This document shows positions 13,168 through 29,048 of a DNA stretch of 64,000 bases, piece after piece (positions within the stretch are counted from its first letter, which is position 1; each line of letters opens with the position of its first letter). Under the pieces are notes generated by a model. The model saw only the letters and a list, made by a program, of their open reading frames with translations, was not told where the DNA came from and searched no databases. The stretch lies in assembly GCA_963833095.1 (NCBI GenBank), contig CAWHWQ010000008.1:165906-229905 (forward strand), written 5' to 3'. The stretch is from Vulcanimicrobiota bacterium. GTDB taxonomy: Bacteria > Vulcanimicrobiota > Vulcanimicrobiia > Vulcanimicrobiales > Vulcanimicrobiaceae. Position numbers and translations under genes: made by a program.

Positions 13168-13261
13168 CGCCTCCTATCGTATCAGGACGGTTCCATGCCG
13201 CTTCGCGGCGCCGCACATCCTGTGCTCGGAACCTTCCTCACCATCCTGGCGATCGCGAAAA

Positions 13262-13277
13262 TGTTCCCCGTGAAACA
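13262..13277. promoter_or_regulatory. parS site 1
   Basis: TGTTCCCCGTGAAACA, 14/16 to the consensus TGTTTCACGTGAAACA; upstream of cca-parA-parB. Confidence 0.8.
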
Positions 13278-13443
13278 TTTGGTGATTATCCCTTGACCGC
13301 ACGTATCCGGCGGAAAGGATTTTTCGCCATTCCAGGTTGGAACGGCGCTGAAAAGCGACTCATCTGAGAGGATTCTCACTCCTGTTGAAACCGAAATTGG
13401 ACCAACGTAGACTTGAGGCATCAGGGCTAAGGAGGCCCAAGCT

Positions 13444-13632
13444 ATGATGCCCGCAGACGAACCCTTCGCTGTGACCAGAGTGATCGGCACCGCCCACGAT
13501 TTGGTTCAAATGCTTCGTGGCTACGGTCAACCCGCAGTTACTCCAAGCGCGGTCGTTGACGGCAAGAGCCTCAAGGACGCGCTGCTGGGCCTGCGGAGCG
13601 TTATCGACGAATTCTTAGCGGGGAAGCTCTAA
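13444..13632 (+). CDS. Small hypothetical passenger protein (62 aa)
   Basis: AAGGAGG RBS upstream; amphipathic C-terminal helix LKDALLGLRSVIDEFLAGKL. Confidence 0.6.
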   Translation: MMPADEPFAVTRVIGTAHDLVQMLRGYGQPAVTPSAVVDGKSLKDALLGLRSVIDEFLAGKL

Positions 13633-13750
13633 GAATCGCGTTCCGATTCCGCCTTAGCTACCTCTGCCGCCGCAAGCTTGCCGTACCAGGTAAGGAACTC
13701 CTCGCTGTGCTCGACGCCGAAAGCGATGATCGACCTCGGCGACAGCCTTT

Positions 13751-13903
13751 TTACTCAGCCGTTTCTTTAACGCGGAGCCGGATTGCGAGCAGCTTGCGGT
13801 TCTCGTCCTCAGTAAGTTCGGGACGGCTAATCTCGACGAGATTTTCAAGTTCGTCCTCATCCGGATCGCGAGCTTTGCGCGTTCGTTTGGCCTTCTCTTC
13901 CAC
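13751..13903 (-). CDS. Small charged hypothetical passenger protein (50 aa, possibly longer via indel)
   Basis: Hand translation MEEKAKRTRKARDPDEDELENLVEISRPELTEDENRKLLAIRLRVKETAE; a protein-like frame (LSPRSIIAFGVEHSEEFLTWYGKLAAAEVAKAESERDS) continues past an A5 run to about 13629. Confidence 0.4.
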   Translation of the reverse strand: MEEKAKRTRKARDPDEDELENLVEISRPELTEDENRKLLAIRLRVKETAE

Positions 13904-14103
13904 GGGAAGGCCACTATAGCACGTTGATCCGCGAATTTGCTTCGATCATCCGCAAAAAGAGCAGGATAGCGGATTTTCCTCGGGGAACAGCATCGAACAC
14001 ACGGTCGCGAGGATGAAGCCTACGCTTCGCCCAAACGGCCAAGTCCCGAAAGGGAAGGGCGCCAACGTTGCAACGCTGACGCCCATTGGACCGGTTCTGG
14101 GAC

Positions 14104-14176
14104 CTCCCGGGGTCGGAATCGAACCGACAGCCTGACCATGGACAGTGGACCGCTCTACCATTGAGCTACACCGGGA
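14104..14176 (-). tRNA. Atypical tRNA-like gene, anticodon GTC (Asp), inside the transposon
   Basis: Minus strand TCCCGGTG-TA-GCTC-AATGGTA-GAGC-G-GTCCA-CTGTCCA-TGGTC-AGGCT-GTCGG-TTCGATT-CCGAC-CCCGGGA-G. Canonical D and T arms; bulged acceptor stem, T-T mismatch in the anticodon stem, C37, no encoded CCA. Confidence 0.8.
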
Positions 14177-14268
14177 TCAAGGAACGAGGGCGAGGCCGCC
14201 AGCCTCGCCTTTTCCTATCCAAGGGTCCCGTTGCGTCGTTACTCTGCCCGAGTGCCCACTCCTTGTGA

Positions 14269-14296
14269 TCGACCTGTGGATAGACCGCAATATAAT
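14269..14296 (+). promoter_or_regulatory. Candidate sigma70 promoter for the transposase
   Basis: TCGACC (14269-14274), 16-nt spacer, TATAAT (14291-14296), about 110 bp upstream of the transposase ATG. Confidence 0.45.
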
Positions 14297-14408
14297 GTGC
14301 ACGTTGTGTGCAGGAGCTTCAAAAACACAAGATATAGCGGGTCGATTTTCTCCCTGACCGCACGTAAAATGCCAACCAGGTGGCATGTCGGCCACCTAGC
14401 TTAGAAGC

Positions 14409-15329
14409 ATGGCTTCTAAGACGAACCTGGCCCCCGTGCAAAAGTATACGTTCAAGGATTTCGAGCAAGACTTCCCAACCGAGCGCGCATGCATGGAATG
14501 GCTGCTGGAGCACTTCTATCCCTACGGCATCCATTGCCTGACCTGCGGTGAGGTCCGGCCTCACCATCTGCTCAAGACTCGCCCGAAGGTCGCCTCATGC
14601 GACTACTGCGGGTCGCACACACATCCGACAGCCGGTACGATCTTCCACAAGTCGCGCACGTCGCTGCGGACGTGGTTCCACGCGATCTTCCTGATGAGCG
14701 CCACCCGATGCGGAATCTCGGCCATGCAACTAATGCGCGAAACCGGCGTCACCTACAAGACTGCCTGGCGCATGTTCAATCAGATTCGCGCCATGCTCGC
14801 CGAGAACGTCGTGCTCGAAGGCAAGGTCGAAGCGGACGAGACCTACATGGGCGGCTACAAGCGCGGCAAGAAGTATCGCGCCGGTGTCGGCAAGACCGTT
14901 GTCGCTGGTGCGGTCGAACGTGGCGGCAAAGTGTTCGCGTACCTGCCGAAAGACGGACGCGATGGCTACGAATTAACCGAGAACATTCGAGCGCGCGTGA
15001 TGCCCGAAACAATGATCTTCACGGACGAGGCGCTTCAATACAGTCGTCTGTCACGCATGGGCCAAGGCTATCTTCACCGTCGCATCCATCACGCGCAAAA
15101 AGTATATGTGCGCGGCGACGTGCATACGAATACGATCGAGGGGTTCTGGTCGTTAGTAAAAGGCGGGATTCGCGGGGTGTATCACTCGGTCTCCGCCAAG
15201 CATTTGCAAGGGTACCTGAACGAATACACCTTTCGCTACAATCACCGCGACGACGCGCGTCCTATGTTTAGGACTTTTTGCTCGAACGTCCGGAAGGACT
15301 TTGTGGCGATTCGCCGTCGCGTCGTCTAA
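14409..15329 (+). CDS. IS1595-family DDE transposase (ISXO2-like) with N-terminal zinc ribbon
   Basis: CLTCG...CDYCG, TAGTIFHKSR, GISAMQL..GVTYKTAW, VEADETYMGG, FTDE, HTNTIEGFWSLVK, YLNEYTFRYNHR; uninterrupted. Confidence 0.96.
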   Translation: MASKTNLAPVQKYTFKDFEQDFPTERACMEWLLEHFYPYGIHCLTCGEVRPHHLLKTRPKVASCDYCGSHTHPTAGTIFHKSRTSLRTWFHAIFLMSATRCGISAMQLMRETGVTYKTAWRMFNQIRAMLAENVVLEGKVEADETYMGGYKRGKKYRAGVGKTVVAGAVERGGKVFAYLPKDGRDGYELTENIRARVMPETMIFTDEALQYSRLSRMGQGYLHRRIHHAQKVYVRGDVHTNTIEGFWSLVKGGIRGVYHSVSAKHLQGYLNEYTFRYNHRDDARPMFRTFCSNVRKDFVAIRRRVV

Positions 15330-15453
15330 CAGCCTTACCGAGATCACGCATGAAATCCTCACGCGTGAACGATTCTAGACCTTGCGTTTTCATAGCAGCC
15401 AACGAATCCTTACTTGTTGCCGAATTGCTGCCTTGGTTTATGAGGTCTGTCAT
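15268..15453 (-). CDS. Small convergent passenger ORF overlapping the transposase 3' end
   Basis: 61 aa with AGGA RBS; amphipathic FTREDFMRDLGKAVRR; directly downstream of the Ntn-hydrolase gene. Confidence 0.5.
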   Translation of the reverse strand: MTDLINQGSNSATSKDSLAAMKTQGLESFTREDFMRDLGKAVRRRDGESPQSPSGRSSKKS

Positions 15454-15461
15454 AATGGTTC

Positions 15462-16269
15462 CTAACTTCTCTTCTCACCGAGTATTTGCTTTATTTGCAC
15501 GGGTTTGAAAGCCATCCATCCGCGTGATGGTCGCGACGTCTATGGCCCCTCCAACCCCGCGAACTCCGATCATCCACTGCTGTAGTGTTATCGTCACCCG
15601 AAGCATAGAAATAACTACGTCGATGCAGTCCTGAAGGGGAAGAAACTGCCAAGGGATAGGTAAGGCGAACTGCTCCTTAAGCTTCTTTTCAAGGTCAGGG
15701 TCGTGCTTTCCGAGGATGTTCTCTACCACTTCAGGTAAGCGGAAATCGAAGCCCTGAATCAGCCGATCTACCACCTCGCGTTGACCGCCCCACTGCACCC
15801 CAAAGTCCGGTAGGCTTTCCACGGGCTTGAGATTTATTGGGACCTTCACCTCAAATGCGCGCCCGTATGGAGCGCCTTCGTCATAACCGGCCACGAAGAA
15901 AATCATCTCTTGGCCTTGCGGGGGGTTCGGGTCCATGCCCGCTTTCTTCCATTGCTTATCAAAGAAAGCGCCAAGGCGCTCGGCGAATTGTTCGACGGAG
16001 AGCCGCTGCGCCCCGATTTCAGTGTCGAACTCGGGCATAAAGCTGACTGCCGTTCGAGGCTCATTTTGACCGATGACCCCGGCGCCAAAGGTGACCGCAG
16101 CCACATACGGCTGAGCCTTTGAGGTTAGCAGCTTACTCGCGTGGTCGTAGGTCGCAGGAATGAGGACCTGTTGTCCATTTGGCAGTTGCTGCATTACCGT
16201 TAAGGTGACCCGGCTGTCGGCGGCGAGCACGATCCCTTCCGGGCCTTTAAACACAAGTCCGAGAGACAT
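15462..16269 (-). CDS. Proteasome-beta-like Ntn-hydrolase (passenger gene)
   Basis: Real start ATG 16269: M-SLGLVFKGPEGIVLAADSRVT...KL, FFVAGYD, LQDCID, GVGGAIDVATIT. As read it stops at 15475; one indel near 15510 would give GFKPVQIKQILGEKRS* ending at 15462. Confidence 0.75.
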
Positions 16270-16368
16270 GGGCGGGTATTGTAGCACGGCACGCTCGGCG
16301 GCTGCCATGGGCCGTAGGTCGGTGCGGTTACGTGCCGTGCGGGGATAATCACCAAACATTTTCGCAAT

Positions 16369-16384
16369 TGTTTCACGGGGAACG
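16369..16384. promoter_or_regulatory. parS site 2
   Basis: TGTTTCACGGGGAACG; reverse complement CGTTCCCCGTGAAACA, 15/16 identical to parS site 1. Confidence 0.75.
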
Positions 16385-16432
16385 TGGCGGACGGCCAGCC
16401 TTCGAGGTTCCGCCGAGCGGGTTAGCCGGGCG

Positions 16433-17218
16433 ATGAGCACCCCGACTGCGTCGCCTGTGCGAAGCGCGAGGCGCTTAGCGAGGCCGAATGTCGAAGGCGG
16501 CCCTGTGCCGAAGTTGCGCAGCGTGAAGATCGGGCTGAGCTACGATCAGGGGTCGCCCAAGTATCGCCTTTATACCGGGGCGCTTATGGCTGCCGCGGAG
16601 CAGGCCAATATCGATGTTCAACCCTTTTGGCTCGCCGGCGCGGACCGGGAAACTGACTGGACCGCGATCCAGACGATGGACGGCCTGTTGCTTACCGGCG
16701 GAGCCGACATCGAGCCGCAGCGCTATGGTCTGAGCGACGCCGCCGGCGTTTGCTCGACGTATCCGGGGCGCGACGACATTGAATGGTCAATTCTCGAGGC
16801 CGCGATGGCGCGGCGTTTGCCGATGCTTGCGATTTGCCGCGGCATGCAGCTCATCAACGTATACCACGGCGGGACGCTCCATCCCGACCTCGTGACCGTT
16901 GAGAACCATCAGCTCGACGATGACCGGCGACACGCCGTGATGTGCGAGGCGACGGCGGCATTGCCCATTCTCATCGGCCAACTCGAGGGCGAGGTCACCT
17001 CGACCCATCATCAGGCCGTCGCAAAGCTCGGGCATGGGCTTCAGATTGCCGCGCGCCACGCGGACGGGACGGTCGAAGCGATCGAATGGACCCGCCCGAT
17101 GCGCCGCCCGTGGCTAGCCGCTGTACAGTGGCATCCGGAGCGCATGGGGCTCGATGAACCATTTTCGGGCGGACTTTTCCGCGGGTTTCTACAGGCCGTC
17201 TCGCTCGCGCGCGACTAA
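16433..17218 (+). CDS. Peptidase C26 / gamma-glutamyl-gamma-aminobutyrate hydrolase family
   Basis: DGLLLTGGADIEP, LAICRGMQLINVYHGGTL, STHHQAV, AVQWHPE (class I GATase triad). True start probably a GTG near 16505-16523. Confidence 0.88.
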   Translation: MSTPTASPVRSARRLARPNVEGGPVPKLRSVKIGLSYDQGSPKYRLYTGALMAAAEQANIDVQPFWLAGADRETDWTAIQTMDGLLLTGGADIEPQRYGLSDAAGVCSTYPGRDDIEWSILEAAMARRLPMLAICRGMQLINVYHGGTLHPDLVTVENHQLDDDRRHAVMCEATAALPILIGQLEGEVTSTHHQAVAKLGHGLQIAARHADGTVEAIEWTRPMRRPWLAAVQWHPERMGLDEPFSGGLFRGFLQAVSLARD

Positions 17219-27684: not shown

Positions 27685-29048
27685 ATGGCGCTTGCGGTTG
27701 GCAATTCGGACATCTCGAATCAACTGTGGCTTTCGGCACTGGAGGCCCTCGAGCGGAAATTCTCCAAGCCGATCTTCGAGATGTGGATCAAGCCGATCCG
27801 CCTGGTTTCGATCAGTGGGGACGCGCTCGTCCTCTCGGTTCAGAGCAACTTCGCCCGGGATTGGGTCGAGCACCGCCTCAAGACCCAGATCGCCGAGGTG
27901 CTCTGCGAGGTCTTCGGCGCGTCCTTGGATTTGCAGTTCACCGTAGCCGAGCCGGATAACGCGCCCGCCGGGGCCGCCCCGGTCGCTCAGAGCCCGATGC
28001 GGGCCCACGAAGAGCTGCGAGCTCGAACCTCAACGCGCGCTACACCTTCGAAGAGTTCGTCATCGGCAATTCCAACCGGTTCGCCCACGCGGCCGCGCAA
28101 GCCGTCGCCGAGCGCACCGGCGCGCGCCTACAACCCGCTCTTTCTGTACGGCGGCGTGGGACTGGGCAAGACGCACTTGATGCACGCGATCGGCCACCGC
28201 GTGCTGCATCGACAATCCCAGCGCCAACGTCGTGTACGTCTCGTGCGAGAAGTTCACCAACGAATTCATCATCGCGATGCAGAACAACCACACGCCTGAG
28301 TTTCGCAACCGATACCGGCACGTCGACGTGCTGCTGATCGACGACATTCAATTTCTCGCAGGCAAAGAGACGACGCAAGAAGAGTTCTTCCACACCTTCA
28401 ACGCGCTGCACGAGTCGGGCCGCCAATTGATCATCAGTTCCGATCGGCCGCCCAAAGAAATTCAAACGCTCGAGTCGCGCTTGCGTTCGCGGTTCGAATG
28501 GGGCTTGCTCACCGACATTCAAGCGCCCGATCTTGAAACGCGCGAAGCGATTCTGCGCAAGAAAGCCGAGAGCGAGAAGATTCCCGTGCCCGACGAAGTG
28601 ACGTCGTTCATCGCCAAAGTGATTCCCTCGAACATCCGCGAGCTCGAAGGCGCGCTGATCCGCGTCGTCGCGTTCGCGTCGCTGACGAAATCGCCGATCA
28701 CGGTCGACCTCGCCGCCGAAGTGCTCAAGAGCGCGGTCGCGCAGGCGCCGCTGCAGCGCGTCACGATCGGCAAGATCAAAGAGAAGGTGGCCGAGCGCAC
28801 ATGGGCTTACCGTCAAGGAGATGGACAACGGCCGGCGCGATCAGCGCCTGGCGGCGCCGCGGCAGATCGCGATGTACATCGCGACCGAACTGACCGACTA
28901 CTCGCTGCCGCAGATCGCGCGCGAGTTCGGCAAGAAAGACCACACGACGGTCATGTATGCGCGCGACAAGATCAAGGACCAGATGCAGCGCGACGAAGCC
29001 TACCGCAATAAAATCCGGCAACTCATCGCCATGTGTCAGTCACCCTAG
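27685..29048 (+). CDS. dnaA: Chromosomal replication initiator; apparent frameshifts
   Basis: [70 protein letters not shown]...KDHTTVMYA. Confidence 0.97.

Follow-up and report, generated by a model that had tools for sequence, protein, structure and literature searches.

A tRNA-like passenger gene in an IS1595-family transposon inserted upstream of the gene for the CCA-adding enzyme

An IS1595-family transposon of 3,073 bp (13281-16353) lies in the stretch of DNA analysed here (the window, 64,000 nucleotides at full length, from the genome referred to as G000) and encloses, on the strand opposite to its transposase gene, a tRNA-like gene together with all of the sequence around it. On balance, we lean towards the view that this region is a set of adjacent passenger-module signals built around a tRNA-like RNA that is selected for its shape and does not decode. 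The initial annotation had described a single structured RNA of ~300 nt surrounding a tRNA-like core. The core is real, with an Rfam tRNA match of 49.2 bits and an ARAGORN call of Asp with a GUC anticodon, and its placement opposite to, and divergent from, the IS1595 transposase (14409-15329) was described correctly. The single ~300-nt RNA was not supported, and in its place we find several adjacent elements with no demonstrated common fold. The positions of all features are collected in Table 1.

Table 1. Features of the transposon and its surroundings, with comparable features at the loci of relatives (positions refer to the window unless a locus is named).
Feature	Position	Strand	Remarks
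Target-site duplication, left copy, 8 bp, AAACATTT	13273-13280		single copy in uninterrupted relatives
Outer left terminal inverted repeat, GGTGATTATCCC...ACCGCACGTA	13281-13305	+	same end type in relatives' elements
Small passenger ORF, 50 aa, GTG start	13751-13903	-	no family match
Extended -10-like promoter (putative), TGCTATAGT	13913-13921	-	9 nt 5' of the small ORF GTG; motif in four modules
Invariant 21-nt box, TCCTCGCGACCGTGTGTTCGA	13993-14013	-	common to G000, G017, G084, and G402
Other helices named in the initial annotation	UCCC/GGGA 14055-14044; CCUCG/CGAGG 14012-14008 + 13982-13978; AUCCGC/GCGGAU 13974-13969 + 13953-13948	-	
Intrinsic terminator (predicted) of the tRNA-like gene: 12-bp hairpin 14084-14057, then UUCCCUUUCG	14047-14084	-	terminator scan
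Non-canonical tRNA-like gene	14104-14176	-	anticodon loop CUGUCCA (GUC, C37), irregular acceptor stem, no encoded CCA
8-bp GC hairpin, GGCGAGGC/GCCTCGCC	14189-14209		13 nt upstream of the tRNA-like gene
130-nt non-coding stretch	14210-14339		~93% identical to G017
Internal copy of left inverted repeat	14340-14366	+	orientation as left end, just 5' of transposase gene
IS1595/ISXO2-type DDE transposase, 306 aa	14409-15329	+	Pfam PF12762, 117.4 bits
321-aa ORF, in-frame TGA, then 61-aa ORF	15268-16440	-	antisense to transposase 3' end
Right terminal inverted repeat	16329-16353	-	inverted copy of left end, ends at 16353
Target-site duplication, right copy, AAACATTT	16354-16361		joint in empty-site contigs
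Insertions in the cca-C26 spacer	window 13232-13280 and 16354-16409; L005 376/4348; L087 1925/4253; L187 ~380 with L085 ~2102; L222 3589/7364		
Body/anticodon-mismatched tRNAs in relatives' loci	L005 1002-1083; L220 190-283; L009 4173-4245; L098 3705-3777; L159 3466-3540; L165 2847-2920		

The borders and the mobility of the element are established by its inverted repeats (IRs), by an 8-bp duplication, and by contigs that carry the empty site, all of which bear out the earlier suggestion that the tRNA-like gene is transposon-encoded. Contigs from two of the four DNA runs join 13272 directly to 16354, with 8 letters common to both sides; these contigs were matched at ≥80% likeness and may stem from relatives and not from the same strain. 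In all four of the same-genus genomes examined (G009, G002, G006, and G010), the gene for the CCA-adding enzyme (cca) directly neighbours a peptidase C26 gene in divergent orientation, at a distance of 200 to 530 bp, with neither an insert nor a tRNA, and it is between these two genes that the 3,073-bp insert is found in G000. The element is single-copy in that genome, which is 81% complete. The element has the terminal IRs and the 8-bp direct target repeat of an IS1595 transporter IS, and the elements of relatives have the same type of IR and direct repeats of 8 to 9 bp. The passengers within the IRs are the tRNA-like gene, small ORFs, and the 321-aa ORF. Related elements at three loci (L005, L087, and L008) resemble the window only from the internal IR (14340) onward. 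The element thus runs from the outer IR through a passenger module that holds the tRNA-like gene to the inner IR, the transposase, more passenger ORFs, and the last IR.

The transposase matches PF12762 (DDE_Tnp_IS1595) over profile positions 2-153 of 153, and a candidate N-terminal zinc ribbon (PF12760) scores 19.9 bits, below the cut-off of 25.4 bits. Homologues of the 321-aa ORF, with 43-51% identity, stand 3' of the transposase in L098, L095, and L047/L049, and the tail of the 61-aa ORF, FTRE(D/A/N)F..L.K, shows codon-level conservation in four elements (alignment A3). No Pfam or NCBIfam match was obtained for the small ORFs or for the 321-aa ORF, and no homology was detectable among the ORFs that occupy the small-ORF position in the four modules described below. 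A hairpin of the form UGCCA-N6-UGGCA was seen in the transposase leader just inside the left IR (14367-14408, plus strand), and its sequence is kept in G000, G017, L005, and L087 (alignments A2 and A4).

The cca-C26 spacer is occupied by elements of this lineage in G000, in the relative G017, in L005/L089, and in L087/L088, with four different duplications and in both orientations. All of these insertions fall in a palindrome of the TGTTTCACGGnGAAACAAT type, which occurs once in G000, and they represent at least four independent insertions of the lineage at one palindrome upstream of cca. The pattern has the appearance of a DDE transposon that is highly selective in its target site. The element in L087 sits at the same locus and is without any tRNA. 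IS1595-type elements were seen in the cca-C26 spacer of five species, in both orientations and in four cases inside the palindrome, and the 8-bp duplications differ among these five spacer insertions (AAACATTT, AACATTTT, GAATTGTT, AAACAATC, and CAAAAAGT).

A search against Rfam recovered the tRNA core and no other family: the tRNA-like gene is the sole match in the 64 kb. The gathering score of the tRNA family (RF00005) is 29, and the gene ranks 38th by Rfam score among the 40 tRNA matches of the genome. A regular tRNA has an acceptor stem of 7 bp, a connector of 2 nt, U33, and a purine as residue 37. The G000 copy departs from these rules in C37 and in an irregular acceptor stem, which contains an extra nucleotide or gap and a U-C mismatch, and the G017 copy departs from them in A33; a U-U pair is also present in G000. 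Among the tRNAs of the host, tRNA-Asn is nearest in the acceptor stem, and a normal tRNA-Asp is encoded elsewhere in G000 (C4:94258-94334).

When 60 relatives and G000 were searched by blastn, the region had one homologue, in G017, at 77% identity; the second match covered 57 nt of an ordinary tRNA-Arg. In G017, the composite occupies the palindrome that is also used in G000, but it is inverted and its duplication is shifted by 1 bp. The passenger ORFs of its element other than the tRNA-like module differ from those of G000. The composite as a whole seems to have been inserted independently in G017. The transposase gene of G017 (L085 611-1392) is without 205 bp that correspond to window 14529-14733, and on account of this missing segment the G017 copy of the element is probably non-autonomous.

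From the transposase start to the upstream hairpin, G000 and G017 are ~93% identical, and the tRNA-like part is much more diverged. The G017 copy scores 53.9 bits with the Rfam tRNA model. Of the 42 letters in the cloverleaf stems, 20 differ between the two copies, and still 19 of 21 stem pairs are intact in G000 and 21 of 21 in G017, with double compensatory changes at eight of the 21 pairs and one further change from G-C to G-U. Random change at equal divergence retains 9.6 ± 2.1 pairs, and 19 pairs were reached in ~1 of 100,000 simulations. In the D- and T-loops, the canonical letters of the elbow are retained. The anticodon loops disagree, with CUGUCCA (GUC, C37) in G000 versus CAGCUAA (GCU, A33) in G017, and the conservation of the anticodon that could be looked for between positional homologues is thus absent. 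Within the two sequences on which the pattern rests, then, compensatory changes preserve the cloverleaf, and the anticodon varies. No tRNA of G017 or G000 is more than 75-76% identical to the G017 copy, which therefore has not been newly copied from a host tRNA. Should the two copies descend from different working tRNAs through cassette replacement, the compensatory pattern would be uninformative on selection.

The predicted terminator starts ~20 nt 3' of the tRNA-like gene. Its 12-bp hairpin contains two G-U pairs when read on the minus strand and C-A when read on the plus strand, which argues that the hairpin works as RNA on the minus strand, the strand that had been favoured from the start on the grounds of such pairs. 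A hairpin and a T-tract are present in four of four module homologues with differing stem sequences, and this compensatory change is in keeping with a terminator. The 21-nt box is exact in 4 of the 348 genomes of the family, and the four modules have a common order, namely a strong hairpin with a T-rich run, the invariant box TCCTCGCGACCGTRTGTYCGA, ~80 variable nt, and a TGnTAT..T motif ~10 nt before a start codon. Judged by its sequence, this extended -10-like motif would function as a promoter. The 3' part of the region (13945-14013) belongs to the conserved unit of box, promoter, and small ORF.

The 3' module is found in other company in two of the four genomes. In G084, it stands behind an ordinary-looking tRNA-Leu(UAA), upstream of dnaA. 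In G402, it is present without a tRNA in a different IS1595-type element between the C26 gene and cca, with 23-nt IRs, the duplication CAAAAAGT, and a transposase that is only 38% identical. A 72%-identical transposase was seen in G084 at the end of one contig (L216, C63), and the tRNA-Leu and the module lie at the start of another (L206, C54), just upstream of dnaA; these two pieces may be one element. The tRNA-Leu of G084 prompted us to consider an integrase attachment site at the tRNA, and this candidate was rejected: an integrase was not observed, and in G000, G017, and G402 the module is enclosed by IRs of the IS1595 type.

On the other side of the tRNA-like gene, the 8-bp GC hairpin is followed by a T-run on the plus strand in both G000 and G017, and it is absent from the list of the terminator scan. 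Given the T-run, the hairpin could be either a plus-strand terminator or a leader hairpin. The adjoining 130-nt stretch contains a sigma-70-like plus-strand site, TCGACC-16-TATAAT (14269-14296), that faces the transposase gene, and this promoter match would explain the conservation of the stretch. Beside the site, CTATCCACA (14275-14283, minus strand) agrees in 8 of 9 letters with the DnaA-box consensus.

A direct check of the sequence confirmed that all helices named in the initial annotation are present on the minus strand. The whole 331 nt fold only modestly better than shuffled sequences, with z = -2.96 for the minus strand and z = -2.28 for the plus strand. The three-way junction that had been drawn immediately 3' of the tRNA does appear in the minimum-energy fold of G000 and does not appear in the folds of G017, G084, and G402; its closing stem sits in sequence that is conserved as such and thus shows no covariation. 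No ORF is conserved across the region, in agreement with the initial annotation, since G000 and G017 differ there by indels of 1, 3, and 4 nt. With the junction in G000 only, a closing stem without covariation, and no ORF, the claimed unit is best described as several adjacent elements. The hairpins that resemble terminators can be explained as independent signals and covariation is confined to the hairpins and the tRNA core, which is one of the outcomes that had been named as contrary to a single RNA. The minimum-energy folds of G000, G017, and G402 have no common long-range helix. RNAalifold, run with G000 and G017, can also join the conserved 5' stretch to the 3' box by long-range pairs that are without exception invariant, and these leave room for a larger fold.

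Our current proposal is that the core is a tRNA-derived gene (14176-14104, minus strand) that would end at its own intrinsic terminator (14084-14047). Downstream would lie a separate unit consisting of the 21-nt box, the extended -10 promoter, and a small ORF with almost no leader, and upstream would lie the GC hairpin and the conserved 130-nt stretch, the latter probably serving the transposase promoter. The transposon carried all of this into the palindrome upstream of the gene for the CCA-adding enzyme. The RNA would first arise as a short precursor; RNase P cleavage, trimming, and CCA addition would follow, and the product would act by its tRNA shape without decoding. The most likely single reading of that action, offered tentatively, is that the RNA presents itself to a tRNA-binding host factor as a mimic or a decoy. 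The tRNA-like gene is known from one close homologue besides G000, and the two broken pairs and the extra acceptor nucleotide of the G000 copy would fit early decay as well.

Several other explanations have to be weighed against this proposal. We regard it as unlikely that the region is, as originally suggested, one ~300-nt structured transposon ncRNA whose tRNA fold is an RNase P/Z cleavage signal that frees functional 5' and/or 3' fragments. Such an RNA would be in keeping with the ~93% conservation of the upstream 130 nt and hairpin in G017, but the plus-strand promoter match otherwise explains the conserved 130 nt. The GC hairpin would cap the 3' end of the leader after the RNase P cut, and both the minimum-energy fold and RNAalifold permit 5'/3' pairing, whereas the three-way junction is a feature of the G000 fold only and no long-range helix is common to G000, G017, and G402. 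In G402, a related 5' stretch joins the terminator directly with no tRNA between, which fits a modular small-RNA gene; in G084, however, the 3' box follows the tRNA-Leu with no 5' partner visible on the contig. In addition, the predicted terminator intervenes ~20 nt after the tRNA, and a transcript that extends to 13945 would therefore require read-through.

An equally unlikely explanation is that the gene is a captured host tRNA gene in decay, a hitch-hiker without function. The intact pairs (21 of 21 in G017 and 19 of 21 in G000 despite half of the stem letters differing), the canonical elbow letters, and the recurrence of odd tRNA-like genes in related elements all speak against it, even though the third-lowest Rfam score of the 40 tRNA matches in G000, the U-C mismatch, extra acceptor nucleotide, U-U pair, and C37 of that copy, the A33 and the shortened transposase of G017, and the insertion of L087 at the same locus without a tRNA speak for it. 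A working decoding tRNA of altered identity, either charged by AspRS or deliberately mistranslating in the manner of the mismatched tRNAs of related elements, strikes us as improbable and as the weakest of these candidates. G000 does present the GUC anticodon with G73 and G10, presumably the identity features of AspRS, yet U33 and a purine at 37 are near-universal rules of decoding and are broken by the pyrimidine 37 of G000 and the A33 of G017, and the two positional homologues do not agree in their anticodon. In relatives, GCC or UGG occurs on class-II bodies and CUA, ACC, or GUC on G3:U70 bodies, and the synthetases of such bodies are not known to read the anticodon; the G000 and G017 copies, by contrast, have neither G3:U70 nor a long variable arm, and the acceptor stem is irregular.

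The distribution of the region was followed at several levels. Among the loci of transposase relatives (80 from genomes and 80 from metagenomes, plus other loci), blastn found DNA of the tRNA side only at the G017 locus; the one additional match covered 57 nt of an ordinary tRNA-Arg gene in L004. Scans of the genome contigs with 20-nt and 21-nt patterns returned G017, one more true locus (L207), and one chance match only. A DNA search of the phylum gave matches in 36 of 401 genomes, and beyond G000, G017, and G084 the inspected matches proved to be either ordinary tRNAs or brief coincidental similarities within coding DNA. The pattern search of the family gave 12 of 348 genomes, with four exact and true matches, and the inspected matches with two mismatches looked like chance in coding DNA, except for a doubtful one at L228. 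The unpublished genome G363 is counted only in these two tallies (36/401 for the phylum and 12/348 for the family).

tRNAs in which body and anticodon do not match were found at the loci of relatives, and they are of three kinds: class-II bodies with GCC or UGG, a single G3:U70 body that recurs with CUA, ACC, or GUC, and a class-I body whose anticodon is GCU. The element in L005 (3,973 bp, perfect 25-nt IRs) lies directly upstream of cca and has a tRNA of class-II type whose anticodon is GCC. In G084:C67, a broken IS1595 transposase has beside it a class-II body that bears the anticodon UGG and is followed by box-like CCTCGCGAGCG and a TGCTATAT motif. L009, L098, and L159 have one common G3:U70 body with the anticodons CUA, ACC, and GUC, and an IR beyond the tRNA was observed only for L009 of these three. 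A wider and more doubtful proposal is that IS1595 transporter ISs of several phyla deliberately carry shape-selected tRNA mimics that serve the element, with fast-changing anticodon arms, perhaps through mistranslation or suppression or by acting as decoys for host enzymes directed at tRNAs, and that these elements home to the palindrome before cca in the Eremiobacterota lineage. If this were true, these RNAs would be a new class of transposon-associated RNA. In two genomes of the same family, the loci L195 (G357:C29) and L201 (G373:C83) were seen to have dense arrays of 17-18 tRNA genes in ~2 kb, one of which ARAGORN calls tRNA-Pyl(CUA).

IS1595-family transporter ISs (tIS) carry passenger genes (Siguier, Gagnevin & Chandler 2009, as cited in PMC3129680). 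The element described here is like them in its DDE_Tnp_IS1595 transposase, terminal IRs, 8-bp duplication, and passengers between the IRs, and it differs from their portrayal in that source in its tRNA-shaped gene, its internal left IR, and the at least four insertions at one palindrome before cca. Abstracts and PMC3129680 yielded no description of tRNA-like passengers in IS1595 elements. Passenger-carrying IS1595 elements are thus on record, whereas for a tRNA-shaped RNA passenger that keeps its fold while its anticodon drifts no description was found in these sources.

With the tRNAs of phages and other mobile elements, the gene shares a tRNA-type layout and its own (here predicted) terminator on a mobile element. 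Phage tRNAs are generally normal decoders, whereas the G000 and G017 copies break the U33/R37 rules and have no common anticodon. YrlA and other Y RNA-like RNAs (RF02553) are likewise non-coding RNAs with a tRNA-like module beside other helices, but the tRNA-like RNA here has a full anticodon arm. An RNA of this type was rejected, as RF02553 scored only 17 bits against a gathering score of 69 and there were no TROVE/Ro60 matches in G000 (81% complete). Processing linked to a tRNA is known from mascRNA/MALAT1 and from bacterial external-spacer sRNAs, and the tRNA fold here could similarly direct RNase P/Z cuts that free flanking RNA; the difference is the predicted terminator directly after the tRNA.

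Transposon guide RNAs include the bridge RNA of IS110 and the omega RNA of IS200/IS605. The present case is like these in having a structured RNA gene beside a transposase and site-specific insertion, and unlike them in that the transposase is of the DDE type and the RNA is absent from the 160 loci of relatives except G017 and from L087 at the same target. A guide RNA was rejected on the basis of shuffled sequences, which match the reconstructed target as well or better in 49/300 (G000), 90/300 (G017), and 58/300 (G402) cases. A 17-nt match of 82% between 13262-13278 and 13973-13989 is no better than expected by chance and has no counterpart in G017. A general companion RNA of the transposase was also rejected, since only the G017 locus shares the region among the 160 loci of relatives and the other loci searched.

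If the RNA is functional, it would be a tRNA mimic among the few RNAs carried by transposons to their own benefit, and its association with repeated insertion before cca would make a simple system in which to study the action of such mimics. The product of cca is the enzyme that would finish such tRNA-shaped RNAs. If the gene is only a captured tRNA in decay, the locus remains a clear-cut case of a DDE transposon that is site-specific and has nested ends.

A further observation concerns the dnaA gene of G000 (window ~27685-29045, G000:C8:193590-194950), which appears as three pieces in different frames when compared with the DnaA of a relative; these pieces could be due to frameshifts or to assembly errors.
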